A stretch of DNA of 64,000 bases from an uncultured archaeon (GCA_964525635.1 CAZGJX010000003.1:39465-103464), one strand, 5' to 3'; numbered from the stretch's first letter, positions 3,984 to 39,502 are shown. Notes: generated by a model from the letters alone, not told the origin. Numbers and translations: made by a program.

Positions 3984-4025
3984 TTTTCTTTAGAAAATTA
4001 AATTAATTATTTAAAGTATTAATAA

Positions 4026-12309: not shown

Positions 12310-12481
12310 AACTTCTTTGATTATATATTGAAGCAGTAATTTTGTATATATTTTTTAAGACTATATCTTTGTAGGGAATATAAAACTGAAAAAAAAAGAT
12401 TCAAAATTATTTGTTATAAAAAAATATATTTTACTAATGATAATTTAATTTTTACAAAACTAATAAACATATAGCTATAAG

Positions 12482-15999: not shown

Positions 16000-17502
16000 A
16001 TGTCAGATTACTTAAAGAATAAAAGTTTTTTGGATTTTATTTTAAAAGAATCAAATGAAAAGTATAATTTCATACTTCAGAATACAAATGATTTGATTCA
16101 AATTCTCAATGATAAATTTAAAATTGATTATATAAATGACCAAGCTCATTTTAAAACAATAGGATATTCTAGCGAAGATTTAATTGGAAATAACTTAGGA
16201 GAACTCATTCATCCAAATGAGTCCAAGGACGTCAGACTTTTCTTAGAAAACCTTCTAAAAAATGGTGAAACAGAACGTGAAGGAAGATTAAAACATAAAA
16301 ATGGGAATTGGATTTGGTTTAATATAAGAGGAAAAAAAATTTTAGATCTAAATGATGAGATAAAATATTTGATAATTTCGAGAGAAATCTCAAAAGAAAA
16401 AAAAGTAGAAGAAGAGTTAAAAACTTCTGAAGAGAAATATCGTCTTATAACAGAAAATGCAAATGATTTAATTGATATTATTGATAAAGATTTTAAAATT
16501 GAATATATCAATGAAGAAGTCCATAAAAAAATACTAGGTTATTCAAAAAAAGATTTAATTGGAAAATTAGCTATTAATTTTGTCCATCCAGATGATTTTT
16601 TAACTGCTATGAAATCTTTAAAAAGAGGAATTAAGCAAGGTGAGGGAGAAGCAGAAATAAGATTTAAACATAAAAATGGAAATTGGGTATGGTTAGAAAT
16701 TAGAGGGAGAATATTTATAGATATTAATGGTAAGGAGAAAGGATTATTAATTTCTAGAGATGAAACAAAAAGAAAAGAAGCTGAAGAAAAATTAAAAAAG
16801 ACATTAGAAGAATTAAAACGTTCTAATGCGGATTTAGAGCAATTTGCTTATATTGCTTCACATGATCTTCAGGAACCTCTCCGTATGGTGGCTAGCTTTA
16901 CACAATTATTGGGCAAACGTTATAAAGATAAATTAGATTCAGACGCAAATGATTTTATTAATTTCGCAGTAGATGGTGCTAAACGAATGCAAGAATTGAT
17001 AAATGATTTATTAACCTATTCAAAAGTAAGAACACATGGGCAACCCTTTGAGGAAGTTGATTTAAATAAGATCCTGAAAGATGTTCTAAAGAATTTAAAA
17101 TTTTCTATTGATGATTCAGATACTATATTTACCTATGATCCTTTACCTGTAATAATGGGTGATAGCTTACAGATCTCTCAATTATTTCAAAATTTAATTT
17201 CAAATGCAATAAAATTTAATGATAAAGAACAACCTATGGTTAGTATATCTATAAAAACAAAAAAAAAAGATTGGGTTTTTTCTATTCGTGATAATGGAAT
17301 TGGAATAGATCCTAAATATTATGATACCATATTTAAAATCTTTAAAAGATTGCATAGTAGAAAAGATTATCCAGGATCAGGAATAGGACTATCGATATGC
17401 AAGAAAATAATTAAACGTCATGCGGGAGAGATTTGGGTTGAATCAGAAGAAGGAAGAGGTTCAGTATTTTATTTTTCAATTCCAAAAATTAAAATTAGAT
17501 AA
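16000..17502 (+). CDS. sensor histidine kinase with two PAS domains
   Basis: Two PAS-like repeats (..RLKHKNGNWIWF.. and ..RFKHKNGNWVWLE..) are followed by H-box ASHDLQEPLRMV, N-box ISNAIKF, DNGIGI and GSGIGLSICKKI. Confidence 0.9.
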   Translation: MSDYLKNKSFLDFILKESNEKYNFILQNTNDLIQILNDKFKIDYINDQAHFKTIGYSSEDLIGNNLGELIHPNESKDVRLFLENLLKNGETEREGRLKHKNGNWIWFNIRGKKILDLNDEIKYLIISREISKEKKVEEELKTSEEKYRLITENANDLIDIIDKDFKIEYINEEVHKKILGYSKKDLIGKLAINFVHPDDFLTAMKSLKRGIKQGEGEAEIRFKHKNGNWVWLEIRGRIFIDINGKEKGLLISRDETKRKEAEEKLKKTLEELKRSNADLEQFAYIASHDLQEPLRMVASFTQLLGKRYKDKLDSDANDFINFAVDGAKRMQELINDLLTYSKVRTHGQPFEEVDLNKILKDVLKNLKFSIDDSDTIFTYDPLPVIMGDSLQISQLFQNLISNAIKFNDKEQPMVSISIKTKKKDWVFSIRDNGIGIDPKYYDTIFKIFKRLHSRKDYPGSGIGLSICKKIIKRHAGEIWVESEEGRGSVFYFSIPKIKIR

Positions 17503-19729: not shown

Positions 19730-20530
19730 CTAAATCAATCTTTTTTCCACTCTGTTTAGTCCTATTTCAGTTGCTAGTTCATCATGAACTCTAATATTTG
19801 CTTCTTTAATCCAAGTTTGCATTAGATCGATTATTTTCTGTGACATATATTTTGATAAGTCCTTAATATTATTTCCCACAGATTTTCTCACAGATATTGA
19901 TGGATCACTATTTAATTTAGTTAAAATATCTAAGATCTTATCATTTTGATTTGAATCTCTTAACCATTTGATTTCTGCTTTTGGTCTTAAGGATTCAGCA
20001 ACAAACCGTCTCAAATTCTGATTTTTATCATTAATCCAATTTGTTAGAACCAATAAAACATCATCAGGTTTTTTTTTTAATCCAGATAAGACACAAAAGC
20101 AGATACTCTCTCTAACAGTCCAATCATTATGATCAGCATATATTTTTATAAAGGGTACAATATCCTCAAAATTATCAGGAAAATTATAGATATATTCTGA
20201 TAAAATAAGTAAAGCAAATTGTTGTATAGATCTATTATTATAGGTTTCTCCCTATTTAAATGCTTTTTCTGATAATTCTATATAGTACTCCTTATCTATA
20301 TTGATTATTTTTTTTAAATAATTCATTATCTCTTTTGAAACATATGTAGAGATATAAGAACTCCCCTTGCCTATTCTCTCATTTTCAGGAATAATATTAT
20401 ATTCATTTTTGAGAAATAGATTCATTTTATTAAGTAATAAATTATTTTTATCGATCTTCCAACTCTTAATTCTTTTACAAAATTCTAATGTGCATTGCCT
20501 GATTAAATTTGAAGAACTTATTGATACCAT
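19730..20530 (-). pseudogene. DNA alkylation repair (AlkD-like HEAT-repeat) family gene interrupted by one in-frame TAG
   Basis: A single reading frame of 267 codons runs from 20530 to 19730 with TAG at 20252-20254. The C-terminal half reads ..WTVRESI..WINDKNQNLRRFVAESLRP..DPSISVRKSVGNNIKDLSK.., typical of the family. Confidence 0.6.
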
Positions 20531-22130: not shown

Positions 22131-23285
22131 ATGAATATAAGTGGTTTAGTCAGAAAAGAATTTGGTCGATTAAGAAGTGATAAAAGGACTTTAATTCTAT
22201 TATTTGCAATTCCGCTTGTATTAATAATAATATTTGGATTAACTTCAGGAGGGGGTCCTTCAGAATTCTTTCATGCATCAATTATAACAAGAGATGATAT
22301 GGATTCTTCATATCCGTTTCCCCCGATGAGTTCTGAATATGATGAAGTATTTATATCGATTTTTAATGATAATCTTACCTCCTTTGGCCTTGAAAGTTAT
22401 TATAATGTATCAAATGAAGAAGAATATTCTGAAGCCTATATTAATTGTAAAAATTTACTGAAAAAGGAGATTATTGATATTTTTATAGTATTACCAGAAA
22501 ATTTCTCCGAGACCGTCAGGGATAACTTAGACACGCATTTAATTTACTATATAGATGGATCGGATCTACAAGCAGTGAAAGCAATTAATGTTTCAATGTT
22601 AGAGCCTATAGTCCAATTCAAATTAAGAACAGGAAAGATGGTTAATTTTACTATGTTGTTGCCATATTTAGAATTTGAAGTACCTTTTTGGGAATCACAA
22701 GTATTAAATTATGCTTTTGCATTAACAATTCCTTTAATAATTATAGGAACAACAATGAATCTTTCATGTTTATCAATTGTGTCAGAAGGACCTTTACCAA
22801 GAATGCTTATTACTCCTGCTTCAAAAAGATCTATTATACTAAGTAAATTAGTCGCAAATTCATTAATTATGATACTTCAAGCAGGAGAAATTTTTATTGC
22901 AACTGCTATATTTGGTCTTTATAGTTTAGGTTCATTATTTGATTTATTTTTAGTATTTCTTGCAATTGGATTTAGTGGAGTAACTATAGGTATTTTTATA
23001 TCATCAATAAGTAAAACGGATCAACAAGCAAATCAACTCTATATGGTCTTTTTTATTATTATTTTATTATTTTCAGGACAATTTGTAAGTGTTGGGAATC
23101 TTCCTGCCTATATGCAGGCCATTATCTATTCACTTCCTTTAGGACATGGTATACCGCTTACATTTGATATAACATTAAAAGGATTGCCATTAAATCTTAT
23201 AACTTTTTCCAGTATAATATTTATATCTTTGGTATATATACTCTTGGCTTATATCATTTATTTATTTAAAAGAATAGAGGTTTGA
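22131..23285 (+). CDS. ABC-2 type transporter permease
   Basis: Has an N-terminal TM, a large sequon-rich loop, then five C-terminal TM segments with SKTDQQANQ. Confidence 0.7.
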   Translation: MNISGLVRKEFGRLRSDKRTLILLFAIPLVLIIIFGLTSGGGPSEFFHASIITRDDMDSSYPFPPMSSEYDEVFISIFNDNLTSFGLESYYNVSNEEEYSEAYINCKNLLKKEIIDIFIVLPENFSETVRDNLDTHLIYYIDGSDLQAVKAINVSMLEPIVQFKLRTGKMVNFTMLLPYLEFEVPFWESQVLNYAFALTIPLIIIGTTMNLSCLSIVSEGPLPRMLITPASKRSIILSKLVANSLIMILQAGEIFIATAIFGLYSLGSLFDLFLVFLAIGFSGVTIGIFISSISKTDQQANQLYMVFFIIILLFSGQFVSVGNLPAYMQAIIYSLPLGHGIPLTFDITLKGLPLNLITFSSIIFISLVYILLAYIIYLFKRIEV

Positions 23286-24511
23286 AAATGAATAGTGAAA
23301 ATGAATTAAAAGATAAAAAGAATGATCAAGGAGGATTAATTAGAGTTAAGAGTAGCTTATTTAGGATTTTAAAAATGATTAAAAAAGAATTTAGATTATT
23401 AAAAACTGATCCTTGGAATTTAGTAATTGCTATATTAATACCTCCGCTCATTATTATGTTATTTTCTTTTATGACGGGAGAAGCAGGAGAATCACCACCA
23501 TTACCTGTAGTTATTGTTTCAAATGATTCAAATACTTTTATAAATCCAAATAATTACACAGAATCAACATTGGATAGTTATTCCATACCTTACATAAATG
23601 CTGCGAATAAGTCAGAATTGTTAGATCTTAAGGCCGTCTATAACTCAACAAAATTTCCATATTCTATGGAAATTGCAAGAGAAGAGTTACTTAAAAGCAA
23701 AATTGGTTGTATTATTGTTATTCCTGTAGAATTTACGGAATTGTTAGTCTTAGGATATCCCGGAATAATTGAATGTATCCCAGATTCTTCGAGAATTTCT
23801 AAAGTTCAAGATAGTATTAATGCAGTATATGATTCGATCAAGATTTTTGTTGAAGATAATCATTTAACTCCTCAAATTATTTTAAATGGATTTGAAGAAT
23901 TTTCTGTCCCAGAAGAATATAATTTAAAATTTAGCTCTAATATAATACAATTATTACCTCTCATGGTATTTGGGATAGCAAATGTATTGACGATTCTTGT
24001 TATCGTTAAAGAAAATCCTATTTCTAGACTCTTACTAACTCCTGTTAAAAAAACAGAGATACTCATCTCAAAATATTTTACTTATTCGGTCGTATTATTC
24101 TTTCAAAATTTGGCTATAATTCTTGCTACAGTATTTAGTGGATTATATATAAGAGGATCTACTTTCGATCTTTTTGGAGCATTGTATATAATTGGTTATA
24201 CTGGAATAAGTATGGGTCTTTTTATTAGTTCCATTAGTAAAACAAAAACAGAAGCAAATCAATTATTTTTTGCTTCTTTTATAATAATAATCCTTTTAAG
24301 TGGATTATTTGTCCCATTAGGAAGCATGCCCATATATCTAAGTTTATTCGCTCAATTATTGCCTTTATCTCATGCAAATCCCCTAATTAGAAGTGTATTA
24401 TCAAAAGGGAACTCTATTTTCGGATATCATTTCTATATATTATTATTAGTAAGTTTAGCTTTGAATATTATTACATTTTTAATATTTTATAAAAGGAGGT
24501 ATGAAGTATAA
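23282..24511 (+). CDS. ABC-2 type transporter permease (paralog)
   Basis: Same topology as the upstream permease, with SKTKTEANQ. It overlaps the upstream permease stop. Confidence 0.7.
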   Translation: MKMNSENELKDKKNDQGGLIRVKSSLFRILKMIKKEFRLLKTDPWNLVIAILIPPLIIMLFSFMTGEAGESPPLPVVIVSNDSNTFINPNNYTESTLDSYSIPYINAANKSELLDLKAVYNSTKFPYSMEIAREELLKSKIGCIIVIPVEFTELLVLGYPGIIECIPDSSRISKVQDSINAVYDSIKIFVEDNHLTPQIILNGFEEFSVPEEYNLKFSSNIIQLLPLMVFGIANVLTILVIVKENPISRLLLTPVKKTEILISKYFTYSVVLFFQNLAIILATVFSGLYIRGSTFDLFGALYIIGYTGISMGLFISSISKTKTEANQLFFASFIIIILLSGLFVPLGSMPIYLSLFAQLLPLSHANPLIRSVLSKGNSIFGYHFYILLLVSLALNIITFLIFYKRRYEV

Positions 24512-25512
24512 TTCTGGGAAATTTAAATTCTAAAAATATAATCGTCAATGTAAGAAATCTCAAAGTTAACTTTAAAAAAAAAAAAATTATTCATGACGTA
24601 TCCTTTCAAGTCTACAAAGGAGAAATTATTGGATTATTTGGAATATCTGGGGCAGGTAAGACAACTATAATTAGAGTTCTAACTTGCCAAATAAAGGAAA
24701 AAAATTGGAAAGGGATAGTATCAGTAACTAATTTAAATCCTAAAAGAAAAAAGAATCATTCAAAAATACTGAGTAATATAGGATATGTTCCTCAGTTAGA
24801 ATTACTTAATCTATATTATGATTTATCTCCTTTGGTAAATGTTGAAATATTTGCATCTAATTATGGACTAAAAAAAGAAATTGCATTAAAAGCTGCAAAA
24901 GATTTATTTTCAATTTTAGATATCCCAAAAGATACCTGGAAAAATCCATTAGAAAAACTTAGTGGTGGTGAGAAAAAGAGAGTTTCTATGGCTATTGGTT
25001 TAATTCATAAACCTAGTGTATTATTTCTCGATGAGCCAACGACAGGAGTAGATGCAAACAAACGTTATGATATTTTAAATTATCTAAAGATATTAAATAG
25101 AAAATTGGGAACAACTATGTTTTTAATTACACATGATCTAGAAGCAGCTTTAATATGTGATAAAACAGCAATTTTAAGAGAAGGAAAATTATTAGAATTT
25201 GATGAACCACACAATTTAATATCCTCTCTTCCAAGTGAAGGAAAATTAGCAAGATTTATAATAGAGGACTTAAATGAGGATATAATTAATTTAATACAAG
25301 AATTTCCTTATTGTGAGTTTGTAGTTCGCACGGGAAATGATGTATTAGAAGTATTTATGAATGATTTTGAAAAAAATTTTATGGAATTTATCAATTTTTT
25401 ATTTAACAATAAAGTAAAAATAATTTCAATGAGTAGAGATATAGCAAATTTTAGGAGATATTTTCAAATACGAATTCAAGAAGAAGAAAGAAAAATTTAT
25501 GAAAATTTATGA
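24508..25512 (+). CDS. ABC transporter ATP-binding protein (5' end extended beyond the ORF-track start)
   Basis: Walker A GISGAGKTT (about 24640-24666) lies upstream of the track start at 24832 in the same open frame, which contains no ATG/GTG/TTG. LSGGEKKRVSMA and LFLDEPTTGVD lie downstream. An AAGGAGGT SD at 24493-24500 is followed by an in-frame ATA at 24508. Confidence 0.8.
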   Translation: MILGNLNSKNIIVNVRNLKVNFKKKKIIHDVSFQVYKGEIIGLFGISGAGKTTIIRVLTCQIKEKNWKGIVSVTNLNPKRKKNHSKILSNIGYVPQLELLNLYYDLSPLVNVEIFASNYGLKKEIALKAAKDLFSILDIPKDTWKNPLEKLSGGEKKRVSMAIGLIHKPSVLFLDEPTTGVDANKRYDILNYLKILNRKLGTTMFLITHDLEAALICDKTAILREGKLLEFDEPHNLISSLPSEGKLARFIIEDLNEDIINLIQEFPYCEFVVRTGNDVLEVFMNDFEKNFMEFINFLFNNKVKIISMSRDIANFRRYFQIRIQEEERKIYENL

Positions 25513-25538
25513 TTAATTTTACCGAAAGGTGATAAATA

Positions 25539-28500
25539 ATAGAAAGAAAGAAAAAAAGACGATTAATATATATTATATTAATTATTGGTATATTTACAGG
25601 TGAATTTATACTCCAATGGATTATCAATATACCATTTATAGAATATTTAAGTGAAAGTGAGGTAAAAAAGTATAAAGATAATATGGGTTATTTTGCTTAT
25701 ACTCACCAAAATCCTGACAGTGGGCTTTTTGTTGAACCTTCTATCGCTTATAATTATAGAGCAATAGATTCAATTAATTTTTCTGACTCTACTTTTAAAA
25801 ATTCTAATTTAACTAATCCTATTGATAATTCTTATCTTGATGTAGAAAATAGTCAATTTTTCTTGGATTATTTATTTGAGAAGCAAAATTCAGATGGTTC
25901 TTTTTCGGATATTGGAGGAATTGGAAATATGATTTCAACTTATCAAGTTGTTAAAACTATAGATAAATTAAATAGTTCTTATTTAGATACACCAGATAAA
26001 TTGGAAAGAGTTGATAAAATTATTGATTTTATAAATATTTCTATGGGTGAGAATGGTTGGGGCTTTAAAGCTCATCCAATCGCAAATGTTTCAGATATTA
26101 TTTCAACATATTATGCAATAAAACTAGCTAAACGGTTTAATAATTATTCAATATTACAGAATAGTAACATAAGTGTATTTATAAATTCTACTAGGTATTT
26201 AGCTCAAGGAGGTTATGGCCTCACAAGTTATAGTCCCATAGTAACTCCAGAAACTACCTATTTTGGAATAAAAGCTCATCTAGAAATGGATTATAATTTC
26301 ACTTTAGAGGATTTAGTCTTACTTGAAACATTTTTTTTTTTAAGAAGAGATCTTTTAGGGGGATATAAAGACTCTATGACGGGTATAACCAATGTAATAT
26401 CAACATATTATGCACTTGCTTCACAATATCTTCTAAATATACCACTCTCTGATTCATTTGAAGAAGTTACATTAGATTTTATACTTGATTGTCAATTACC
26501 TGATGGAAGTTTTGAATATTATCTTAATGTAATTTTGGATATCCCACGATTTAAATCTGGTTGGGCTGCCATGAAAGCTATTTCTTTATTAGAATATAAT
26601 GCTACAGCACCTCTTAGCGTAGCTAATAGTGTTAAAAGCAAATATTATAATTGGTTATATAAAAATCAAGCAATGAATGGTTTAGTTGGACAAATATCTC
26701 TCCAAACAAATTATTTTGGGGTATTATCTTTACATAACTACGATATTCAGAATTATACTTATTATATTAAGATGAATGAAATCTTAAAATATGCGGATTC
26801 CTGTTACAATCCTAATGATGGTGGTTTTGGCTCTAAACCAAATTCTAATTCAACTATTTTTTCAACTTATTGTGCGATTTTTTTATATAACTTATTTCTC
26901 CCTTATAATATATCTTATCTTCCTAATGCAACAGCAACGAAATTATATTTTAAAACAATTCAAAATGAGGATGGAGGTTATAAAGTAGGTGAAGATATAG
27001 ATGTTGTTATTTCCTTCTTTGGTTCCGTATATGAGCCAATCTTACATTTAATAAATACAAATATCTCTACAGTTATAAGTACATATTGGGCATTAAGTAG
27101 TCTAAATGATCTAGATGCATTAGATATAATCAATACTACTTCTTTACAACATTGGATTTTTTCATGTCAGAATGCAGATGGAGGATATTCATTATTCATT
27201 GGATTTCATTCAGATGTAATTTCAACATATTATGGATTAGAAATTCTTAGATTCTTTAATCTAGAACCCCTTTCTAAAATAGCTGCGCTAGAATTCCTTA
27301 AAAAAGCACAATCAGAAGATGGAAGTTTCATTCTAATACCATATCTTTCGTTATTATTTGATTTACCCACTTCCTTTATTGGTAATTATTTAGGCTCAAT
27401 TTCCTTATATTATTATAGATCACAACCCCAAAACTTACCTAATCTAGCTAAGTGGTTTAGAAATTGTTTCAGTAATATTACAGGGGGAGTTGGAGATTAT
27501 CCTTTTTTTGGAGGGGATCTTAGAAATACTCCTTATGGATTACTTATAATTGATCGTATTAGATTTGATCAAGCTTTTGATCCGTTACCATGGACTCGAC
27601 TGATTTTTTGGATAATGATTTCAGAAATTATAGTACTATTGTTAATTGTGATGCTTAATATGGTTTCATATGTAAACCTATCTGTAGTTAGAATACTAAA
27701 ATTAAAATTAGGTATAGGAGACAAATTAAATGTTGAATATTTAAAAAGATATCCAGCAATATATTGTGAAAATTTAAATATCTTTGTAGGTAAAAAGCTA
27801 ATTGTTGATGGTGTATCTTTAGAATTAAATCATGGAAAAATATTAGGCGTATTAGGAGAAAGTGGAGCAGGAAAATCGACTTTTATAAAAGCTTTGTTAG
27901 GTATGAGAAAATATAAAGGTAAATGTGAAGTTTATGGGATGGATGCACGGAAAAACAGAAAGAAATTTAGACCTGTTTTTGGATATGTCCCGCAAGACTT
28001 AGGTAAAATTTATTCCAATTTTACTACTCTACAAAATTTAATCTATTTTGGAAGTCAATACGGTCTTTCTGAAAAACAAATAATTAGTAGAGCAAAAAGA
28101 TTATTAAGAAGCTTAGAGATTGAAGATAAAATAAATGAACCTGTAAAAACACTATCAGGAGGTCAAAAAAGAAGAGTTAGTATTGCAATGGCTTTAATTC
28201 ATACACCAATCTTTTGTATATTGGATGAACCTACATCTGGCTTAGATCCTGTAGTTAGAGAAAATCTATGGCTTGCACTTACTAAGATAAATGAAAGATT
28301 TAATACTACTCTTCTGGTTATTTCTCATTATCCAGAGGAATCAAGATTTTGTAATAAAGTCGTAGTATTTGGTAGAAAAAGAGGAATGATAGATTTTGGC
28401 AATCCAAAGGATTTATTAGCTCAATTACCTGGAAAAGGAAGAACTATTGAATTATCTTTTAATGATTTATATGAAAATGGAGTTCAACGTTTAGAATCAA

Positions 28501-28697
28501 TAATAGGAATTGAAAAAGCTCTTGAAAATAAAGTAGGGAAGGATTTTATAATATTAACAGATTTGAATTTAAATGAAACTAAAAATAGAATTGAAATGGA
28601 ATTCGGTAAAAACTCAATATCAGAATTGAAGCAATCTGATGCTAAAATGGAAGAATATTTTAGGTATAAAGCACTAGAAATTCAGGATTTAATTTAA
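25539..28697 (+). CDS. fusion protein: N-terminal signal anchor, prenyltransferase/terpene-cyclase-like alpha/alpha-toroid repeats, TM helix, C-terminal ABC ATPase
   Basis: At least 9 repeats of the Q..DG(G/S)F...(I/V)STYYAL type are present. The TM is WTRLIFWIMISEIIVLLLIVMLNMV. The ATPase has Walker A GESGAGKST, LSGGQKRRVS and ILDEPTSGLD. The first ATG is at 25683, but the open frame upstream encodes KKKRRLIYIILIIGIFTG. Confidence 0.75.
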   Translation: MERKKKRRLIYIILIIGIFTGEFILQWIINIPFIEYLSESEVKKYKDNMGYFAYTHQNPDSGLFVEPSIAYNYRAIDSINFSDSTFKNSNLTNPIDNSYLDVENSQFFLDYLFEKQNSDGSFSDIGGIGNMISTYQVVKTIDKLNSSYLDTPDKLERVDKIIDFINISMGENGWGFKAHPIANVSDIISTYYAIKLAKRFNNYSILQNSNISVFINSTRYLAQGGYGLTSYSPIVTPETTYFGIKAHLEMDYNFTLEDLVLLETFFFLRRDLLGGYKDSMTGITNVISTYYALASQYLLNIPLSDSFEEVTLDFILDCQLPDGSFEYYLNVILDIPRFKSGWAAMKAISLLEYNATAPLSVANSVKSKYYNWLYKNQAMNGLVGQISLQTNYFGVLSLHNYDIQNYTYYIKMNEILKYADSCYNPNDGGFGSKPNSNSTIFSTYCAIFLYNLFLPYNISYLPNATATKLYFKTIQNEDGGYKVGEDIDVVISFFGSVYEPILHLINTNISTVISTYWALSSLNDLDALDIINTTSLQHWIFSCQNADGGYSLFIGFHSDVISTYYGLEILRFFNLEPLSKIAALEFLKKAQSEDGSFILIPYLSLLFDLPTSFIGNYLGSISLYYYRSQPQNLPNLAKWFRNCFSNITGGVGDYPFFGGDLRNTPYGLLIIDRIRFDQAFDPLPWTRLIFWIMISEIIVLLLIVMLNMVSYVNLSVVRILKLKLGIGDKLNVEYLKRYPAIYCENLNIFVGKKLIVDGVSLELNHGKILGVLGESGAGKSTFIKALLGMRKYKGKCEVYGMDARKNRKKFRPVFGYVPQDLGKIYSNFTTLQNLIYFGSQYGLSEKQIISRAKRLLRSLEIEDKINEPVKTLSGGQKRRVSIAMALIHTPIFCILDEPTSGLDPVVRENLWLALTKINERFNTTLLVISHYPEESRFCNKVVVFGRKRGMIDFGNPKDLLAQLPGKGRTIELSFNDLYENGVQRLESIIGIEKALENKVGKDFIILTDLNLNETKNRIEMEFGKNSISELKQSDAKMEEYFRYKALEIQDLI

Positions 28698-28720: not shown

Positions 28721-29440
28721 TTATTTAAATCGCTCAATTAATCCTTTATAAATTAGATAAAAACATATTATTGATGAGAGTGCTGTAATATTCATAATTA
28801 TTCTTAACAATTCGATATTTAGATAATTAATAAGGAATTCTGATAAAAATATTGCTAATAATCCAAAAACTCCCAAATAAAAAATTCGAAAATGTTCTTT
28901 TAATTTTTCATTTTCCATAGCATTGTATATTTCTTTTATAGTTCTCAATAAAGGAATAATCGAAATAAGAAGGACACAAATTATTATAAATAGGAAGAAA
29001 TAAATATTAAGGACTATGTATCCTGACTTAAAGGTTATTTTATCAAGAATAGCTGCAAAAGTCATACCTAATATTAAAGATACTGCATAAATCTTTAGAT
29101 AGTTGTTAATTTGAGACTTTTGAAAAGTTATCGATGATTTAATAATTATTTTATTTACTATATATAAAAATCCAAAAGCATAACAATTAAAAAAAGCAGA
29201 AATAATGTAGAAAATGATTAGTATAATTTCAAATACACCAACTATTAATAAAGTAAAATATACAATCATTGCAATACTCCCTAATGCAATTGCTATAAAA
29301 AACCAGGAAAAATATAAATTTAATTGCTCATCTTTAGATTTTAATATTTTATAGCTAAATAATAAAAAGAAACTAACTAAAGCTAACTGCATACAATATG
29401 TTAGTACTATATCATAAAGAGAGAATATTTCATTAATCAT
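28721..29440 (-). CDS. polytopic membrane protein (about 6-7 hydrophobic segments), unknown function
   Basis: A 239-aa ORF that is almost entirely hydrophobic helices separated by short K/N-rich loops. Confidence 0.5.
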   Translation of the reverse strand: MINEIFSLYDIVLTYCMQLALVSFFLLFSYKILKSKDEQLNLYFSWFFIAIALGSIAMIVYFTLLIVGVFEIILIIFYIISAFFNCYAFGFLYIVNKIIIKSSITFQKSQINNYLKIYAVSLILGMTFAAILDKITFKSGYIVLNIYFFLFIIICVLLISIIPLLRTIKEIYNAMENEKLKEHFRIFYLGVFGLLAIFLSEFLINYLNIELLRIIMNITALSSIICFYLIYKGLIERFK

Positions 29441-29644
29441 ATGTTATTTTGAAAAGATTTTGAATTTTTTTTATGAATATTTTAATTATTATATAAACTT
29501 AGATATAAAAGTTATATTTCTATTTTTGGGAAAAAATTATTTTTTATTTTGTAATCCTAAACTATCACAATAACTCATTCTTTTAATTTATTTTAATATA
29601 TTAGGATTAATAATTTTATAATTTTCTTTTTGTACCAAAGAGAT

Positions 29645-30103
29645 TTATTTAGAGAAAAGCAATGATATTTTATCCTCTATATTATTCTTAGATATTCCAA
29701 GAATATTATCAATAATATTTTTGAATTGGATAAATTGTGTGGAATATGAAAAATCATGACCATGATAATTTACTTTAAATTTATGTAAAATGTTTTCTAA
29801 TAGAGGATTAATTTTTCTTTTTACATTTTTATCGAATTTTTCATTCTTATCTAATATAAGATAGGCAAAGATATCTGTTATCTCTGAATTAATAGTATTA
29901 ATTTTTTCCTTTTTAAAAATAAAATTATATTTAGTACTTTCAAAAGACTCTATTGGCGAAATAAGGGTTTCAGCAAAATTTAATAAACAAGAAAGTAATG
30001 CACATTTATGAATTAAATCCTCATCCTTTTCACTAGGATTAATATAATTAGCACTTATTATAGGAATACCCCCGATAATAATACCTGCTTCATAAATTTG
30101 CAT
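29645..30103 (-). CDS. small soluble protein with a longin/roadblock-like N-terminal pattern
   Basis: MQIYEAGIIIGGIPIISANY..DEDLIHKCALLSCLLNFAETL..YNFIFKK..IFAYLILD follows the same beta-beta-alpha-beta-beta order as the C-termini of the TPR proteins. Confidence 0.45.
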   Translation of the reverse strand: MQIYEAGIIIGGIPIISANYINPSEKDEDLIHKCALLSCLLNFAETLISPIESFESTKYNFIFKKEKINTINSEITDIFAYLILDKNEKFDKNVKRKINPLLENILHKFKVNYHGHDFSYSTQFIQFKNIIDNILGISKNNIEDKISLLFSK

Positions 30104-30382: not shown

Positions 30383-32095
30383 TTGAATAACTATAGAAAA
30401 GAAGAATTAGAATTAATTAGAAAAAAAATAATAGATGCTATTCGATTTTCTGAGCGTTATTGGATGATTTATAAGAAAAATACTTTTGGATTTTCAACAA
30501 TATTAGATTTGAATTATAAAAAGAGTTACATCGAAGTATTACTATTTTCGAATTATGATGTCTTGCATGAAGGAGTACCTTTAATAGAAATAAACACACC
30601 TATAGAAACAGAACTTGATTTTAATACAATTATTGTTGATCCTGATTTTGATGATGATGGACTAATAAGTCCTATAAAAATAATTGAACGAATTAATATA
30701 TTAATTAATAAGGAATATCAATATCATATTGATTTTTTAAATAAAGAAATTGAATTAATGAACGAAGAATTTGAGAATTATCCATTTAAAGATATCCCCT
30801 ATTTTAGGAAAATTCGAATTTATTTCCCTGATTTTTATATTAAATTGAAAATTAATTTTGAGCTTTATCCATCAAAACCAACATTTTACTTTTCAAAATT
30901 TCTTTCAAGAATAATAAAATTAGTAGAATTTTTAAATATTGATCCTATTAAGAATTGGAATGAATTAGAACCTCCTCATTTAGTAGATATATTAAAATAT
31001 TTAATTAAACTTATTATTAAATCCCTTAAAATTAAGAATTATTACAAAAATTCTCAATATTTATTATTAGATAATTTTTTGTTAGAAAAAGATATAGATA
31101 AAATATCTTTTAAAATTCACAGAGGACAATCAATTGGAATATTATATGAGGGAACATCTGAAGAAAATAATGATCAAACTAGCATGAACATATTATTTAA
31201 AAGTATTATGGGGGAAATAAAAAATTTTTCAGGAGTTATAGATATATTTGGTAAATTTATTCAGCTGGTAGATAGAAAAGATCTAACAGGTATTATTAAT
31301 ATATCTAATTCAATAGATTTCAAAAAAGAAAATATGAAAATTAAGAAAGCAATTAAATATGGTATTAAATTAAAACCTAAATTAACACCCTATAGCACAG
31401 TTATATTAGGTAACCTACAAAATAAGGATAATATATTATTAAGAAAATCATGGCTTTTAAAAAATCCTATTTTTAAAAGTTTCTCAATTCTTAAGAAATT
31501 TAATAAAAAAAGAGAAATTATCAATAAAACTTTAGAAATAACAGGATTATCAAGTAAACTAAATTTAAAAGTATTTCAATTAAAGAAATTTGATCTTTTA
31601 TTATTATCTATAGCAAGGGCTCTTGTTCAATTACCAAAGATAATAATTTTTCCGATTCCTCAAGGCATCTTAAATAGATTGGAATATGAAAGATTAAATA
31701 ATTATTTAGAAATTATAAAAAAAAAGTTCCATATTGCACTTATAATTCATGGACCCGAGATAGTTGTTTCTAAATGTGACAAAATTTTAACTATTACAGG
31801 GAAGAAAGCTGATTCTGGAACAATGAAAGAATTAATTAAAAAAATACCACAATCAGGAGAATTAATTTCAATTGAATTAAATTATCCAAAAGAGGAAGAG
31901 TTAAATGAATTATTTCAATTAGAATCGGTTATAGTCCTTGAAGAGAGAAAATATGAAAAATATAAATTATTTCCAAAAGAAGATCCAGATAAATTAATTA
32001 GAAAAGTAATCCGTATATTTGGAGCTGATTTATATAGTTTTAAACGTTATAAAGCGTCTCTACATGAATTTGTTGAATTTTTAAGAATTTCATAA
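30383..32095 (+). CDS. UBC/RWD-like domain fused to a degenerate (catalytically dead) ABC-type ATPase domain
   Basis: The C-terminal 340 aa are collinear with ABC-2-type ATPases, but Walker A reads ILYEGTSEENNDQTS, the signature reads QLKKFD and Walker B reads IIIFPIP. The N-terminal part contains KLKINFELYPSKPTFYFSK...W...PPHLVDILKYLIKLI (YPxxxP-type). Confidence 0.55.
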   Translation: MNNYRKEELELIRKKIIDAIRFSERYWMIYKKNTFGFSTILDLNYKKSYIEVLLFSNYDVLHEGVPLIEINTPIETELDFNTIIVDPDFDDDGLISPIKIIERINILINKEYQYHIDFLNKEIELMNEEFENYPFKDIPYFRKIRIYFPDFYIKLKINFELYPSKPTFYFSKFLSRIIKLVEFLNIDPIKNWNELEPPHLVDILKYLIKLIIKSLKIKNYYKNSQYLLLDNFLLEKDIDKISFKIHRGQSIGILYEGTSEENNDQTSMNILFKSIMGEIKNFSGVIDIFGKFIQLVDRKDLTGIINISNSIDFKKENMKIKKAIKYGIKLKPKLTPYSTVILGNLQNKDNILLRKSWLLKNPIFKSFSILKKFNKKREIINKTLEITGLSSKLNLKVFQLKKFDLLLLSIARALVQLPKIIIFPIPQGILNRLEYERLNNYLEIIKKKFHIALIIHGPEIVVSKCDKILTITGKKADSGTMKELIKKIPQSGELISIELNYPKEEELNELFQLESVIVLEERKYEKYKLFPKEDPDKLIRKVIRIFGADLYSFKRYKASLHEFVEFLRIS

Positions 32096-32118: not shown

Positions 32119-32943
32119 ATGATTAAGAATATCTATATTTTAAGCAGAAATGGGATGTTGCTATATTCAAAAAATTTTATTGAACAAAAATACGATGATA
32201 ATTTATTAATTGGATTCTTTACGTCAGTAGAAAATTTTAGTCGAGAAGCTTTAGAAAGTATTGTAAAATTTATAGATCTTGGTGTAGATAATAAATTAAT
32301 CCTTAAACCAAAACCAGATGAAAAGATCTTTGGTGCAGCTATAGTAAGTTCTAAGGATAACAATATATTAGTGGGTAAGATACTTGATAACATATTGCAA
32401 GATTTTATTGATGATTTTTCACCTGATTATAATCTTGATAGAAAAAGTAAAAGTAAAATGGATAAAAATATAGAGGACAATCTAAAAAAACGGACATCTT
32501 CATCATTAAGAATTAGAATATTAAAAACTTGGTTAATATTAGGACCACTTGGATTATTACTTACAATTATTAACATAATGGCGACAGAATATTTTATTTC
32601 ATCCAGACAATCTGAATATGGATCTTTTTTTTATATGGAAGATATTCTATTAAGCATAATACCACAAGTAGTTTTAATTTCTTTAGCTGAACTTGTTTTA
32701 GTATTTGGTGTTGCTAATTTCATATCTGGATATATAATATTAGACCTCAAGCTAGCTGCTATAAATGTACTTCTATATTTTGGTTATATTCTTATCTTTT
32801 ACTTTATATCTGTAAAACCTGTCTTAGCTCTGATTATTCTCACGTTTTTTCCATTCATTATAGTCGCATCTTTATTGGCAGCATATCTTGGTTATGTTTT
32901 AGCGCTTCAGAGAATAACACTTAGAGTAAAAGAAATAGATTAA
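32119..32943 (+). CDS. longin/SNARE-like (AP-sigma-like) domain protein with a C-terminal multi-TM anchor
   Basis: MIKNIYILSRNGMLLYSKNF..LLIGFFTSVENFSREAL..IFGAAIVSS..ILDNILQDFIDDF parallels the sigma-adaptin/longin pattern. Four hydrophobic segments follow. An AGAGGA SD sits 7 nt upstream. Confidence 0.55.
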   Translation: MIKNIYILSRNGMLLYSKNFIEQKYDDNLLIGFFTSVENFSREALESIVKFIDLGVDNKLILKPKPDEKIFGAAIVSSKDNNILVGKILDNILQDFIDDFSPDYNLDRKSKSKMDKNIEDNLKKRTSSSLRIRILKTWLILGPLGLLLTIINIMATEYFISSRQSEYGSFFYMEDILLSIIPQVVLISLAELVLVFGVANFISGYIILDLKLAAINVLLYFGYILIFYFISVKPVLALIILTFFPFIIVASLLAAYLGYVLALQRITLRVKEID

Positions 32944-33119: not shown

Positions 33120-34604
33120 ATGAGTTATAAAGCTCCAAATGAAAAAGATTTAGAATCTTTAAAATCAATTGTGGGTAAGGACTATGCTTCAATGGATGAA
33201 GCAATTACAGCATCTTATTTATCTAAATCTGTTATGGGTTTAGAAGGTCAAATTCCTGATATTGTCATACGACCAAAATATGTTGAAGAAATCAGGAAAA
33301 TATTACTTTATTGTTCAGAAGAAAAAATAGCGGTAAGTCCCGTTTCTGGTGGCCTTTCAGGAGGATTTGCTTGTCCTACAATTAAACCTGCTGGAGTATT
33401 ATTAGATTTGGGCAGGATGAATAGAATTATTGAGATAGATGAGGATAATCGATATGCAATAATTGAACCAGGTGTTACAAACGGGCAAATTTGGGCATAT
33501 ATGCTTAAAAATAATTCTGATTTTGCCCCACCTATAGCTGACGGAGCCCCCCCTGCTGCAACAGTCATGGGAGATGCTATTGATCGAGGATTTTCACTTT
33601 ATACTTCAAGTGTTGGACCTCAAGGGGATAATTTTATGTGTGCTGAAGTTGTTTTTCCAAATGGAGATGTCTTACGTACTGGATCGTGGGTACTTCCAAC
33701 AGCTAAACCATTTTACAAGTACGGAATTGGCCCAGATATGTGGAGCCTTTTGATGGGTTCCCAAGGAACATTTGGGGTTATAACAAAAGTAGCTGTAAAA
33801 ATTTATCCTCACCCAAAATATAAGACAATTGTTGCTTGGGGAATGTCTAATCCTTATGATATGCAGAATGTAACTTATGAATTGGGTATAAGAGAGTTTA
33901 GCATTGCCCATAATACAGTTATGGTTCAAGGGGGAAATTACCCCTTAATTATGGCTCGATGGCCTAAAGATAAAATCCCCCACGATTATGAATTCTTTAA
34001 AGAGATGGGAATACCTAAATGGTGGATGAATTGGGAATGTTGGGCTTGGAATGATAGGGAGTTGGAATATATAACAGAAACAATTAATAATCATTGTAAA
34101 GAATTTGCAAAGAATAGAGCTAAAGATGGTAATAATATGCAACCATGGGAACTTCATCCAAAACAAATAACGAGTAGATTGAAAAAACCAAATAAAATTG
34201 CGATACCTTATGCACTTTGGGAGTCTGGATTTTTATTTATCACATGGTATACTCCCTGGAAAGATTGTGCTCAATTCGCTGAAAAATATATATCTATCTT
34301 AGAAAAATATGGTTTTCCTCCAGTAATTTGGATTGCTTCTATTGAACATTGTCGACAAGCAATATGTATGCCAATACTTGTTTTTGATAGTTCAAAATCA
34401 GAAGATATCGAACGTGTTCAAGATTTTAATAGGGAGACTACCGAATATAGTTTAAAACAAGGTTGGCTTAATTATAGACCTGATCCAAAATTTTCTATAA
34501 AAGCATATTATCAATCAGGATTATATTGGAAATATTTAAGAATGTTTAAAAGATTGGTTGATCCTAATATGATAATGCATCCTGGAAGACTAGGATTACC
34601 ATAA
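33120..34604 (+). CDS. FAD-linked oxidase (PCMH-type FAD-binding domain, GlcD/VAO-like)
   Basis: Has ..IRPKYVEEIRKIL..AVSPVSGGLSGGFACP..LDLGRMNRIIEIDEDNRYAIIEPGVTNGQI. Confidence 0.8.
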   Translation: MSYKAPNEKDLESLKSIVGKDYASMDEAITASYLSKSVMGLEGQIPDIVIRPKYVEEIRKILLYCSEEKIAVSPVSGGLSGGFACPTIKPAGVLLDLGRMNRIIEIDEDNRYAIIEPGVTNGQIWAYMLKNNSDFAPPIADGAPPAATVMGDAIDRGFSLYTSSVGPQGDNFMCAEVVFPNGDVLRTGSWVLPTAKPFYKYGIGPDMWSLLMGSQGTFGVITKVAVKIYPHPKYKTIVAWGMSNPYDMQNVTYELGIREFSIAHNTVMVQGGNYPLIMARWPKDKIPHDYEFFKEMGIPKWWMNWECWAWNDRELEYITETINNHCKEFAKNRAKDGNNMQPWELHPKQITSRLKKPNKIAIPYALWESGFLFITWYTPWKDCAQFAEKYISILEKYGFPPVIWIASIEHCRQAICMPILVFDSSKSEDIERVQDFNRETTEYSLKQGWLNYRPDPKFSIKAYYQSGLYWKYLRMFKRLVDPNMIMHPGRLGLP

Positions 34605-36052: not shown

Positions 36053-36822
36053 TTAAACGTCTCGTGTTCTAAATCTTAGATAAGCAAGAATAATACTAGG
36101 AATTAAATAACATAGCAACATTACTACTACCCAATCGACTTTTAATATAATAACAATTTCTTCAGAGGTAACTTCACCTCCAAAAATAGATTGTCCGACT
36201 AATTCAGAATAAAAAGGGAAATAATAGGGGCTATTGACAAAAGCAAGGAGTATTCCAAAAGCAGCTCCTAATATAATCAGTGTAATAAAAGCCATAGTCA
36301 TAGCTTGAGAACCAGATCGGAAAATGGTACTATGTAATATATATATAGCCGCATAAGTGATTCCAGATAAGCAAGAAAGCCCAAACCATATAAATAATTC
36401 AGTTGGAATTTGTTGATAATATATAATTGAATAGATCATTAATTCAATCAAGCAAGGTCCAATCCATATTAAAATAATTGTTAAAACAGCAAGAGTTTTA
36501 CCAATAAAAAAGTTTGTTCTCCCTGTTTTAGTAAAATTTGTAAGTACTGTTCGTTTATCAAACTCATCTGTTAAAATTCCTCCTGCAAAAAATAGGGAAA
36601 TAATTAATATTATCATCCCATAATTTTGGGTTATGGAGGATAAAAACTCTTTCGGATTTGGTGGAAGAAAAAAACCAATGAGAATCCCATATAAATTTAT
36701 AATTAATATTCCTAAAAAGAGAAGATGTAAATATCTTTTCTTTTTAGAGATAATTCAAACTTATAAACTTCAGATATTAATCTTGGATTAGTTCCTCTTT
36801 TGATTTCTATATCAACGGACAT
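36053..36822 (-). pseudogene. ABC-2 type permease disrupted by a frameshift
   Basis: ATG at 36822 gives MSVDIEIKRGTNPRLISEVYKFELSLK.. The frame then changes in an A-rich run near 36745-36755 to ..KKKRYLHLLFLGILIINLYGILIGFF..MIILIISLFF.. (track ORF 36053-36616). Confidence 0.7.
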
Positions 36823-36823
36823 T

Positions 36824-37858
36824 TTAATTATAACCTCTTTTCTTTTTTAATTTAGAATCCGTTTCAATCAGATCTAGATATAAATCTTCTAGACGAGAAG
36901 ACCTGACTTTACTAAATCCAATTATAGGTAGCTTTAAATCTAATGATAAAATATCATGTATTTCTTTTCTCGATTTAGGCTTCCCATCATAGTATATATA
37001 GAATCCAGATAAATTTTCATTATATTGAACTATTGCTTTTGTATCTTCAACACAATAAGGAACGATTCTTTCAGATAAATCTTTAGTATAGTATTCAATT
37101 TTATTATTTTTGATAGGATCAAGTAATTCAACGGCTATTTCTTTTATTGTCATTTTTTGTTCAAGATTAACTATTTTATCAACAGCTATGAGTTCTCCAT
37201 GATTTATAATGGCAATTCTATCACAGATTTCAGATATTTCATATAGCATATGTGAAGATAAGAAAATTGTTTTTCCTAATTCTTTATTTTTTTTCATAAT
37301 GTTTCTTACTTGTACACGCCCTTCAGAATCCAATCCGGTTTGAGGTTCATCTAAAACAGCCACAACGGGATCATGAATAAGAGCTTGAGCCAATCCAAGT
37401 CATTGTGTCATTCCATTTGAAAATTCTTTAATCTTTTTATTTTTCCATTGGATCATTTCAACCAAATCTAATACCCAATCAATTTGCTGTTCTATTTTAT
37501 GTCTTGGAACACCTAATAAACTACAATAATAGCTAAGATTCATTTTTGGTGTTGCCTATCCATAAAAAGCGGGTATATCAATTAAAAAACCAAATTTTTT
37601 GTATAATTCTAATGGGTGATCATTTATATTAATAAAATCTCCATTACCTGTGTTAATTTCAATAAATCCAGAGGTTGGTTTAACTAATCCACCGAGCATC
37701 TTCATCGTAGCTGTTTTACCCGCACCATTTGGTCCTACAAATCCTAAAATCTCTCCTTTTTAAACTTCAAGATTCAATTTATTCACCGCTATAAGATCAC
37801 TATATTCCTTAGTTGTGTTATTAAATCTTGCGATAGTGTTATCTATCATATTTCTCAT
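36824..37858 (-). pseudogene. ABC transporter ATP-binding protein with three in-frame stop codons
   Basis: One frame reads [68 protein letters not shown]. The stops are TAA at 37760-37762, TAG at 37556-37558 and TGA at 37400-37402. Confidence 0.85.
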
Positions 37859-38089: not shown

Positions 38090-39502
38090 ATGAATATAAG
38101 GGAAATGTCAAAGTCAGGAATAGAACGATTAGAAGAATTAAAGTCAAAAATCTATCAATGTATTCATTGTAAGGCTTGTAGATTTGCCTATTCAGGTCAA
38201 CCAAGTAAGGAAGGCATTGGTGAATATGAAGGGAAACAGGGAAAAATTCTTTATGAAGGTATGATTGATTCCTGCCCTGCAGGTATTGAATATGGTTGGG
38301 AAGCTTTCTGGAATGCTGGGATAATCTGGATTGCTCGTTCTATTTTAAGTGGAGATCTAAATATTTCTGAATCCGTGAGAGATGTTATTATGCCATGTAT
38401 TACATGTGGAATGTGTTCAACTCAATGTGAAAATAAAATTCCAACTGTAGATATCATTGAAGCCTTAAGAGCTGCTTGTGTTGAGGCAGGTGTACCTTTA
38501 GTAGAAAAACATGAAGTAATTAAAAAATTAGTAGAAGAACTGAATAATCCGTATGGAGGAAAAGCTGAAGAACGTTTTCAATGGGTAAAGGATGCTGGTT
38601 TCGAAAAATATATTAACAATAAAGATGCAAAAATCGCTTATTATGTTGGATGTACAGCAAGTTATCGTCAAAAAGAAATCGCTATTGCAACCTGTAAAAT
38701 TTTTGAAAAGCTTGGAATTAATTTCACCCTGATCCGTGAAGAAGTTTGCTGTGGAAGTCCATTTTTCAGAATTGGAGCCACAGAAACAGCCCAAGAATTA
38801 ATGAAAAAAAATCTTGAGAGTTTTAAAAAAGTAAAAAAAATATTTTTCTCCTGTGCTGGATGTTATAGAACTTTTACAATTGATTATCCAAAATGGAATA
38901 AATCAAAAAAAAATCCATTTCAGACATTACATGCTTTTGAATTAATCACACAATTGATAATTGATGATAAAATTAAATTTAAAGCAAATAAAAATCTGAA
39001 GGATAAGGTAGTTACTTATCATGATCCATGTCATACGGGTAGACACTTTGGTATCGAATTTGAACAAGAACTTATTGAACAGAGTGAAAATTTAATGTTT
39101 GATATGAGGAAACTCAATGAAAAACTTGAGGAATGGTTTGAAAAACCACGTATCATTCTAAAAAAGTTAGAAGAAGATGTAGGAATTCAATTTAAAGAGA
39201 TGTATCGTATTAAAATGGATTCTATGTGTTGTGGGGCTGGAGGCGGAGTAAGAGCAGCTTATCCAGATTTCTCTCTAAAAACTGCAAGTCTAAGGTGTGA
39301 TGAAGCCAATGCTATAGGCGCAGATATATTAACCACAGAATGTCCCTTTTGTTTTCGAAATTTAAGTGATGCTAATGAGAAATTTAAACATGAATTACAA
39401 GTGTATGGATTATTGGAAATTATCGATAAATTCGATTTATTAGAGATAATAGATACTCCATCTGAAGAATATGTATTAGATTTAAGGAGAAATATTCTCT
39501 GA
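38090..39502 (+). CDS. Fe-S oxidoreductase with two 4Fe-4S motifs and two CCG domains (GlcF/HdrD-like)
   Basis: Has CIHCKACRFAY and CITCGMCSTQCEN, then ..VGCTASY..CCGSPF.. and ..HDPCHTGRH..MCCGAGGG...CPFC. Confidence 0.8.
   Translation: MNIREMSKSGIERLEELKSKIYQCIHCKACRFAYSGQPSKEGIGEYEGKQGKILYEGMIDSCPAGIEYGWEAFWNAGIIWIARSILSGDLNISESVRDVIMPCITCGMCSTQCENKIPTVDIIEALRAACVEAGVPLVEKHEVIKKLVEELNNPYGGKAEERFQWVKDAGFEKYINNKDAKIAYYVGCTASYRQKEIAIATCKIFEKLGINFTLIREEVCCGSPFFRIGATETAQELMKKNLESFKKVKKIFFSCAGCYRTFTIDYPKWNKSKKNPFQTLHAFELITQLIIDDKIKFKANKNLKDKVVTYHDPCHTGRHFGIEFEQELIEQSENLMFDMRKLNEKLEEWFEKPRIILKKLEEDVGIQFKEMYRIKMDSMCCGAGGGVRAAYPDFSLKTASLRCDEANAIGADILTTECPFCFRNLSDANEKFKHELQVYGLLEIIDKFDLLEIIDTPSEEYVLDLRRNIL

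Follow-up and report, generated by a model that had tools for sequence, protein, structure and literature searches.

A window of 64,000 nucleotides from an uncultured archaeon (GCA_964525635.1, CAZGJX010000003.1:39465-103464; about 27% G+C) carries a gene in which a large extracellular domain and an ATP-binding cassette (ABC) ATPase form a single polypeptide. The gene occupies positions 25539-28697 (counted from the first letter of the window; features lie on the + strand unless stated otherwise), and its frame is open from 25536 to the stop codon at 28695-28697. The 1052-residue product comprises a basic N-terminus, a first transmembrane helix (TM1), two helical toroids, a second transmembrane helix (TM2), a nucleotide-binding domain (NBD), and a C-terminal domain. 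An initial annotation, made from the sequence alone, had proposed that a toroid ectodomain and a complete ABC ATPase share one gene. Pfam bears this out, with Prenyltrans (PF00432) at 97.2 bits against a cut-off of 26.5 and ABC_tran (PF00005) at 97.7 bits against a cut-off of 25, both in the same open reading frame (ORF). We are confident in the overall architecture: an NBD joined through a two-helix transmembrane hairpin to an external, noncatalytic double toroid. ABC transporters are among the best-mapped protein machines, yet our literature searches found no description of an NBD tethered in this manner to a large extracellular pair of alpha/alpha toroids.

The ectodomain was modeled with AlphaFold2 (AF2) over residues 1-720, using 80 homologues (predicted local distance difference test, pLDDT, 92.1; predicted template-modeling score, pTM, 0.88). 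TM1 is a signal anchor at residues 9-34 (25563-25640), indicated by hydropathy and by a modeled helix at residues 3-30; the RKKKRR stretch ahead of it lies on the cytoplasmic side. Toroid 1 spans residues 39-354 (25653-26600) and toroid 2 residues 363-673 (26625-27557). The approximately 24 helices between residues 39 and 673 form 12 hairpins, six per toroid. Every hairpin combines a Q/N..DG(G/S)(F/Y) loop with an inner helix of (S/T)TYY type, and we therefore assign two (alpha/alpha)6 toroids. In-register alignment of the halves (E 6e-10; 205 residues, 28% identical) shows that the pair is the product of a duplication. TM2 follows (27582-27695; modeled helix at residues 682-719, hydropathy peak at residues 688-706), with an invariant tryptophan, W685, at its outer end. 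The helix previously placed at 27590-27664 (residues 685-709) is real, but it is not the only one: TM1 had been overlooked. In the same way, the proposed prenyltransferase/terpene-cyclase fold is upheld, but as two toroids rather than one.

Three features support a topology with the N-terminus inside the cell, the ectodomain outside, and the NBD inside: the basic N-terminus, the excess of N-glycosylation sequons (N-x-S/T) in the ectodomain (17 observed, 7.8 +/- 2.5 expected from composition), and a low proportion of lysine plus arginine, which over 79 homologues amounts to 5.6% in the ectodomain and 14.6% in the NBD. In the model, the linkers between toroids and TM helices measure at most 10 residues at both ends, which suggests that the toroid pair lies directly on the membrane surface.

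Structural and sequence searches agree on the relatives of the fold. For a single toroid, Foldseek against the PDB finds the beta subunits of GGTase3, RabGGTase, and FTase (TM-score on target 0.67; E 2e-9 over about 295 columns); for the pair it finds squalene-hopene cyclase (SHC) and oxidosqualene cyclase (OSC), with E 1.6e-7 over about 730 columns. A PDB sequence search returns RabGGTase beta at the top (E 2e-11). Toroid 2 is the part closest to the prenyltransferase beta subunits: the best Pfam stretch covers residues 504-653, and the RabGGTase beta matches fall on residues 512-597. The most conserved loop outside the repeats, GGVGDYPFFGGDLRN (residues 649-663; 27483-27527), also belongs to toroid 2 and lies next to the membrane. 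Its residues G650, G652, D653, F657, G658, D660, and N663 are kept in 92% or more of the homologues compared, the most distant of which are 33% identical, and the loop is a candidate functional site.

The ATPase portion (27807-28694) consists of a canonical NBD and a C-terminal domain of about 90 residues, and is joined to TM2 by a linker of about 25 residues. All five catalytic motifs are present: Walker A (GESGAGKST, residue 773; 27855-27881), the Q-loop (YVPQD, residue 816; 27984-27998), the signature (LSGGQ, residue 872; 28152-28166), Walker B with its catalytic glutamate (ILDEPT, residue 894; 28218-28235), and the H-loop (VISHY, residue 927; 28317-28331). They are nearly invariant across 81 homologues. 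The closest solved sequences are ABCA3, ABCA7, ABCA1, and ABCA4 (E 4e-51 to 4e-40), and the best NCBIfam models are DrrA, NodI, and GldA, each below its equivalog or subfamily cut-off. Together with the ABCG23-like transporter that is the nearest solved sequence to a neighboring permease, these relationships place the system in the ABC-2, or type V, group.

The 5' end of the gene requires explanation. The ORF finder starts it at ATG 25683, the first ATG, GTG, or TTG in frame, and thereby obtains 1004 residues. The 48 in-frame codons upstream of this ATG encode IERKKKRR followed by a 26-residue hydrophobic helix, and homologues with a canonical start carry M(D)RKKKRR and the same helix at their N-termini. 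On the basis of this match we set the start at the ATA codon at 25539, the position given by the initial annotation. A Shine-Dalgarno-like AGGTGA precedes it, the two together occupying 25526-25541. The arrangement, AGGTGA(T) followed after 6-7 nucleotides by ATA, recurs in 6 of 11 loci: the window and L012 (5501-5509), L013 (4586-4594), L003 (7989-7997), L005 (9989-9997), and L006 (9857-9865). In these loci the first canonical start lies 4-49 codons further 3', within or past TM1, and in other homologues the codon at the ATA site is ATG or TTG. To judge from this pattern, ATA seems to serve as the initiation codon. A start at GTG 25529, combined with a frameshift in a run of seven A residues, was considered and dropped, given the in-frame ATA at equal spacing in five other loci. 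Our literature searches on archaeal AUA starts yielded nothing relevant.

The choice of start codon has consequences for the whole family. Gene callers shorten such proteins (database entry P0001 has 1004 residues). With AUA a frequent start codon in the family, many of its entries are truncated at the N-terminus; TM1 is missing from them, and a wrong topology results. Long open stretches ahead of the first canonical start are uncommon in the window, occurring in only 2-4 of about 42 long ORFs. Two ORFs on the - strand, 19730-20251 and 36053-36754, have 66 and 46 open codons, respectively, before the first ATG, GTG, or TTG; they may be further cases of noncanonical starts or gene remnants.

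A join of toroid and ATPase in one frame could in principle be an artefact, in which misassembly or a sequencing error merged two genes. The start-codon oddities of neighboring genes and a nearby ABC ATPase pseudogene would fit such an explanation. The distribution of the junction refutes it. A homologue search with residues 1-720 gave 166 significant matches; the best 120 clusters, at 90% identity, come from NCBI, JGI, ENA, and Logan assemblies, measure 986-1068 residues except for a few partial entries, and contain both PF00005 and PF00432 throughout. The passage from toroid 2 through TM2 to the NBD is unbroken in at least 120 independent clusters from these four sources, and also in Helarchaeota at 35% identity. 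With the same junction in independent Asgard assemblies, an assembly join can be dismissed with near certainty.

The same searches delimit the family. An exhaustive HMMER pass over 1.84 billion protein representatives returned only 23 at E<1e-30, all of them fusions; no element of the series TM1, ectodomain, TM2, Walker A, signature, Walker B is missing from any full-length representative. This rarity agrees with the earlier description of the protein as an unusual way to build an ABC system. The next-best matches lack an NBD and have only single repeats in common with the fusion; they consist of toroid repeats and an anchor at the C-terminus. The best protein matches are all from Lokiarchaeota/Promethearchaeota, and named members come from Lokiarchaeota/Promethearchaeota, Hermodarchaeota, Hodarchaeota, and Helarchaeota. 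The family is widespread among Asgard archaea and restricted to them.

The fold raises the possibility that the ectodomain works outside the cell as an active enzyme, with the export of its substrate coupled to it. Such an enzyme could be a class II terpene cyclase, a prenyltransferase acting on proteins or aromatic compounds, or an (alpha/alpha)6 glycoside hydrolase or lyase. Both the fold and the repeat motifs are those of the prenyltransferase/terpenoid-cyclase superfamily, and class II cyclases are cofactor-free and could in principle operate outside the cell. The catalytic signatures are missing. Motif searches of the entire fusion protein found neither the DxDD(T/E) general-acid motif (no D.D[DE] or D.DT) nor the CGEQ thioester motif, and only one fusion homologue has a PF07678 match. 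The zinc ligands fare no better. In prenyltransferases they are an Asp-x-Cys where an inner helix begins and a histidine one hairpin further on; the D, C, and H ligands of RabGGTase align to T511, I513, and S562. Read from the sequence, none of the 12 inner-helix starts carries D-x-C, and the sole D-x-C of the protein, DSC at residues 420-422, has an aspartate that is 30% conserved. The cysteine of this DSC, C318, and C643 are structural cysteines of a CQxxDGGF repeat, C445 lies in an inner-helix STYC motif, and H56 is the only conserved histidine. The conserved aspartates and glutamates lie in repeat loops. Pfam and locus comparison revealed no alpha-subunit-type gene in the conserved cluster.

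Since the zinc triad, DxDD, and the thioester motif are all absent, we regard the ectodomain as a binding or scaffold module and an enzymatic role as very improbable. Of the earlier proposal that the ectodomain captures or processes a ligand, capture is still plausible and processing is unlikely. One defining feature was looked for in each of the prenyltransferase, terpene cyclase, thioester-domain, MacB, and GldG families and was found missing every time; the fusion protein lies outside these families.

The fusion gene belongs to a conserved set of six. Directly upstream, as already noted in the initial annotation, lie two ABC-2 permeases and a separate ATPase. Permease 1 (22131-23285; 384 residues; PF12698 ABC2_membrane_3, 76.6 bits), the relative of the ABCG23-like transporter, has one TM helix, an extracellular domain of about 150 residues, and five further TM helices. 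Permease 2 (23282-24511; 409 residues; PF12698, 74.2 bits) is its paralogue at 32% identity, and its TTG start overlaps the permease 1 stop. Both are present in 10 of 10 informative loci. The free ATPase, NBD-A (24508-25512; 334 residues; PF00005, 87 bits), shares the C-terminal domain of about 90 residues with the fusion. Its frame is open from 24505, and its Walker A (24640-24666) precedes the first canonical start at 24832. An ATA at 24508 overlaps the permease 2 stop (ATAA) and follows a Shine-Dalgarno sequence, GGAGGT (24494-24499), by 9 nucleotides; this ATA is the probable start, and identity to the L001 orthologue (75%) extends from residue 2 on. In L013, the closest relative for which flanking sequence exists, the free ATPase gene is split into ORFs of 183 and 131 residues (3512-4570), which reflects either a frameshift or decay of the subunit.

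Two further members lie downstream. The first (30383-32095) encodes 570 residues: an N-terminal domain of about 225 residues, a degenerate NBD, and the C-terminal domain found in the two real NBDs. The last 340 residues are paralogous to the real NBDs and retain the C-terminal domain, but Walker A, LSGGQ, Walker B, and the H-loop are gone; both real NBDs keep all catalytic motifs. PDB profile searches match it to NBDs (E 9e-11), and its AF2 model (pLDDT 85.5) finds the NBD plus R domain of ABCA4, ABCA3, and ABCA7, and TM_1403, as best Foldseek matches, with about 410 columns for the ABCA NBD plus R domain. The N-terminal domain is well folded in the model, where it forms two alpha-beta(4)-alpha units, and it contains a YPxKP motif that is conserved; no relative was found in Pfam (65 members) or in a PDB profile search of the isolated domain. 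An RWD/UBC-like fold was considered for this domain and set aside, with no support from these searches and with Foldseek matches to NBDs only. Orthologues of the 570-residue protein occur in all loci. In L007, a single ORF of 1510 codons appears to unite it with the fusion; this is an artefact that spans a scaffold gap of 100 Ns.

The second downstream member (32119-32943) encodes 274 residues, with a soluble N-terminal domain of about 125 residues and about four TM helices. Longin-clan Pfam families match its N-terminal domain below threshold: Sybindin in 12 of 42 members, Intu_longin_1 in 7 of 42, as well as Longin and Clat_adaptor_s. A PDB profile search gave nothing significant. A membrane-anchored longin-type domain beside an ABC system would be unusual. 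Orthologues occur in L001, L003-L007, L010, and L013, and none was detected in the rearranged Helarchaeota locus L009.

In L001 and L003, permease 1, permease 2, ATPase, and fusion are followed by a gene for a 570-581-residue protein that overlaps the fusion stop and then by one for a 267-269-residue protein. In most relatives the pseudo-NBD gene likewise overlaps the fusion stop (as in L001, L003, and L010) and precedes a gene for a membrane protein of 267-294 residues; the window orthologue of the 570-residue-type protein is 49% identical. The six-gene set also occurs in L004-L006 and, at 22-42% identity, in the Helarchaeota locus L010. In the second Helarchaeota locus, L009, the order is rearranged, with the permeases after the fusion and the 570-like gene divergent, and five genes are kept; their persistence together through this rearrangement argues for functional linkage. 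These five are thus common to Lokiarchaeia and Helarchaeota.

In the window, two genes on the - strand (28721-30103), encoding 239 residues with six TM helices and 152 residues, separate the fusion from its downstream partners. They occur in the closest relatives, L012 and L013, and are absent from L001, L003-L006, and L010; they are specific to this subclade and probably lie outside the system. The 152-residue gene (29645-30103) was also considered as a paralogue of the N-terminal domain of the 274-residue protein and rejected (hhalign probability 0.4%). The proposal that the fusion gene is the last of its operon holds only for the co-directional run of this subclade; the conserved genes at 30383-32095 and 32119-32943 continue the cluster.

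The system resembles several known machines, each in part. ABCA1, ABCA3, ABCA4, and ABCA7, DrrAB, and NodIJ have type V/ABC-2 permeases with a large extracellular domain after TM1. ABCA-type exporters also have a regulatory-type C-terminal domain after the NBD, they include the solved structures nearest to the fusion NBD, and their NBD plus R domain is matched by the pseudo-NBD model. In ABCA1, the extracellular domain forms a tunnel, and this extracellular module has been proposed to shelter lipid. In contrast to ABCA, the additional ectodomain here is a toroid pair carried on the NBD polypeptide by its own two-TM hairpin rather than inserted in a permease, the components are encoded by separate genes, and a third, dead NBD paralogue is present. 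By analogy, the fusion system would work most like the ABCA-type exporters with extracellular lipid-handling domains.

Other systems share the topology or the fold. GldA-GldF-GldG is an ABC-2 system of gliding motility in Bacteroidota, in which the large extracytoplasmic domain of GldG is bounded by a TM helix on either side. The accessory topology of TM helix, ectodomain, and TM helix is the same, and in both ATPases of the window the GldA model aligns over the whole length of NBD and C-terminal domain, below its cut-off. GldG, however, is a separate polypeptide of another fold (PF09822), whereas the toroid pair is fused to the ATPase; PF09822 (ABC_transp_aux) has no Pfam match in the fusion at E<=0.01. 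In NosDFY, likewise, an ABC-2 permease works with an NBD and provides the docking site for a large extracytoplasmic protein; in contrast to the toroid pair, NosD is a soluble, unfused beta-helix, and its chemistry is unrelated. The SHC/OSC enzymes have two (alpha/alpha)6 toroids in one chain. SHC resides at the membrane surface, and squalene enters its inter-domain cavity from the membrane; the short linkers suggest a similar location for the toroid pair. The pair differs from SHC/OSC in the absence of DxDD, its position on the outer rather than the inner face, its two TM anchors in place of a monotopic attachment, its origin by simple tandem duplication, and the looseness of the superposition. 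The beta subunits of RabGGTase, GGTase-I/III, and FTase provide the best single-toroid matches in sequence and fold, including the glycine-rich loop and the aromatic inner-helix repeats. Those enzymes are cytosolic heterodimers, whereas the toroid pair is extracellular, sequon-rich, and duplicated, without zinc ligands or an alpha subunit.

We propose that the fusion protein is one ATPase subunit of an Asgard-specific ABC-2 (type V; ABCA/ABCG/DrrAB/GldAF-like) exporter whose toroids take isoprenoid-type cargo, and we rate the chances of this proposal as a whole as about even. The gene set, with two different permeases and two different competent NBDs, is of the heterodimer type. From its cytoplasmic RKKKRR N-terminus, the fusion would pass through TM1 to a toroid pair lying flat on the outer face of the membrane and return by TM2 to its NBD. 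This NBD may pair with the free ATPase (24508-25512) beneath a permease 1/permease 2 heterodimer. As the fusion would supply one NBD of the complex, exactly one toroid pair would be fixed beside or above the extracellular domains of the permeases. ATP-driven movement of the permeases could then expel a hydrophobic, probably isoprenoid-based lipid or lipid-linked cargo from the membrane, and the toroid pair would receive or shield it, in a manner comparable to the ABCA1 tunnel and to the entry of squalene into SHC. The 570-residue pseudo-ATPase and the 274-residue membrane protein would be obligate companions, probably regulators. The architecture, the fold, the absence of catalytic motifs from the ectodomain, the intact ATPase motifs, the conservation of the six genes, and their restriction to Asgard archaea are observed; subunit stoichiometry, the direction of transport, and the nature of the cargo are what we infer.

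The identity of the cargo is the more tentative part, and on its own we consider an isoprenoid somewhat doubtful. Members of the prenyltransferase/SHC fold family bind isoprenoid chains in a central or inter-domain cavity, and the membranes and glycan carriers of archaea are isoprenoid. Together with a transporter of the type that exports lipids and lipid-linked glycans, these features make an acceptor or shield for isoprenoids the most economical reading. Several observations weigh against the proposal. The pair superposes only loosely on SHC/OSC (rmsd about 12 A, TM-score 0.38-0.44), and the inter-domain arrangement may differ. The nearest-neighbor likeness of the NBD to ABCA tells little of the cargo. 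The conserved ectodomain residues, among homologues down to 33% identity, are repeat-motif residues nearly throughout and define no binding site; the exceptions are the loop beside TM2, W685, and a loop with W372, N380, L382, and G384. Across the loci compared, no obvious isoprenoid or glycan pathway genes are consistently adjacent. Finally, the proposal does not account for the roles of the pseudo-NBD and the 274-residue protein.

The direct connection between NBD and ectodomain also admits a mechanism without translocation, as in MacB, FtsEX, and LolCDE. In these systems, a large extracytoplasmic domain flanked by TM helices is part of, or tightly coupled to, the NBD polypeptide, and the logic can be one of force transmission rather than transport. 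Here the tethered NBD, on binding and hydrolyzing ATP, would move TM2 and TM1, the toroids would open and close against each other, and the work of extracting, releasing, or activating a surface molecule would be done outside. One continuous TM helix and a linker of about 25 residues offer the most direct route for force, tandem rigid toroids could form a clamp, and the placement of a big ectodomain between two TM helices is reminiscent of type VII systems, in which the extracytoplasmic domain separates TM1 from TM2. The partners fit this mechanism less well: the permeases are ABC-2 (type V) rather than FtsX- or MacB-type, Pfam gives no FtsX or MacB_PCD match, and only one NBD of two is tethered. 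Moreover, (alpha/alpha)6 barrels are rigid, and the cluster has no conserved gene for an outer partner such as an adaptor or hydrolase. The architecture differs as well, as MacB, FtsEX, and LolCDE have a four-TM FtsX fold and an N-terminal NBD where fused, whereas the fusion has its NBD at the C-terminus, only two TM helices, and ABC-2 permeases encoded by genes of their own. We judge force transmission unlikely, though worth keeping in mind.

A pattern of uneven conservation suggests yet another role. Among homologues down to 33% identity, 54 of 725 ectodomain columns are conserved at 92% or above, against 101 of about 327 in the NBD; the ectodomain thus evolves far faster, as a recognition surface would. 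The toroids might be a sensor or target-protection ectodomain, as in BceAB, that recognizes an external molecule, for example a toxin that binds isoprenoid carriers, a surface lipid of a partner cell, or a glycan. Recognition would then gate the transporter or be relayed as a signal by the pseudo-NBD and the longin-like protein. The co-conservation of two apparently regulatory companions is in keeping with such a role. On the other hand, the cluster contains no conserved kinase or signaling gene, the PAS histidine kinase at 16000-17502 has no syntenic counterpart in other loci, and nothing identifies a ligand; we see little chance of a sensor.

A broader version of the exporter proposal gives the companions a part to play. 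The six-gene cluster may be an ABCA-like lipid machine in which the toroids extract isoprenoid lipids or dolichol-linked glycans from the outer leaflet, and the pseudo-ABC protein and longin-type domain exert control from the cytoplasm. We hold this version to be improbable, to much the same degree as the sensor. If true, it would represent an archaeal precursor of regulated lipid export and membrane remodeling in the eukaryotic style, and might bear on the protrusions of Lokiarchaeia or their contacts with partners. Asgard archaea are the closest prokaryotic relatives of eukaryotes, and the family always occurs with the same four partners, and with the fifth (the 274-residue protein) in all loci but one. 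The movement of lipids and lipid-linked glycans is poorly understood in archaea generally. Should the toroids of the proposed exporter bind isoprenoid lipids, they would provide a first handle on how Asgard archaea move these molecules across or out of the membrane.

Other features of the window have looser ties to the system. A 1475-residue protein at 59174-63601 had been described as carrying a related toroid head. This claim falls short: its Prenyltrans match (residues 45-167) reaches 23.8 bits, below the cut-off of 26.5, and the pairwise comparison gives E 0.039. It lacks an N-terminal signal and has hydrophobic helices at residues 1424-1465, features by which it may be tail-anchored. An orthologue with 47% identity lies 7.5 kb downstream of the fusion in another Promethearchaeota genome (L003, 18679-19204); this is synteny and not evidence of function.

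A second ABC ATPase gene, at 37858-36824 on the - strand, has in-frame stop codons at 37760-37762 (TAA), 37556-37558 (TAG), and 37400-37402 (TGA), with Walker A and B otherwise intact; its sequence is most likely that of a pseudogene. A short distance downstream of the cluster, the segments 33120-34604 and 38090-39502 hold an FAD-linked oxidase and its CCG/Fe-S partner. Where the oxidase occurs in other loci it is 74-76% identical. The two genes are immediate neighbors in relatives; in the window an MFS transporter gene, an ORF of 187 residues, and the ATPase pseudogene intervene. Elsewhere, 10105-14677 encodes two tandem paralogous TPR proteins of about 730 residues, and 41495-46659 holds genes of surface-modification type, namely Acyl_transf_3, a Condensation-domain protein, a sulfotransferase, and an arylsulfotransferase-like protein.

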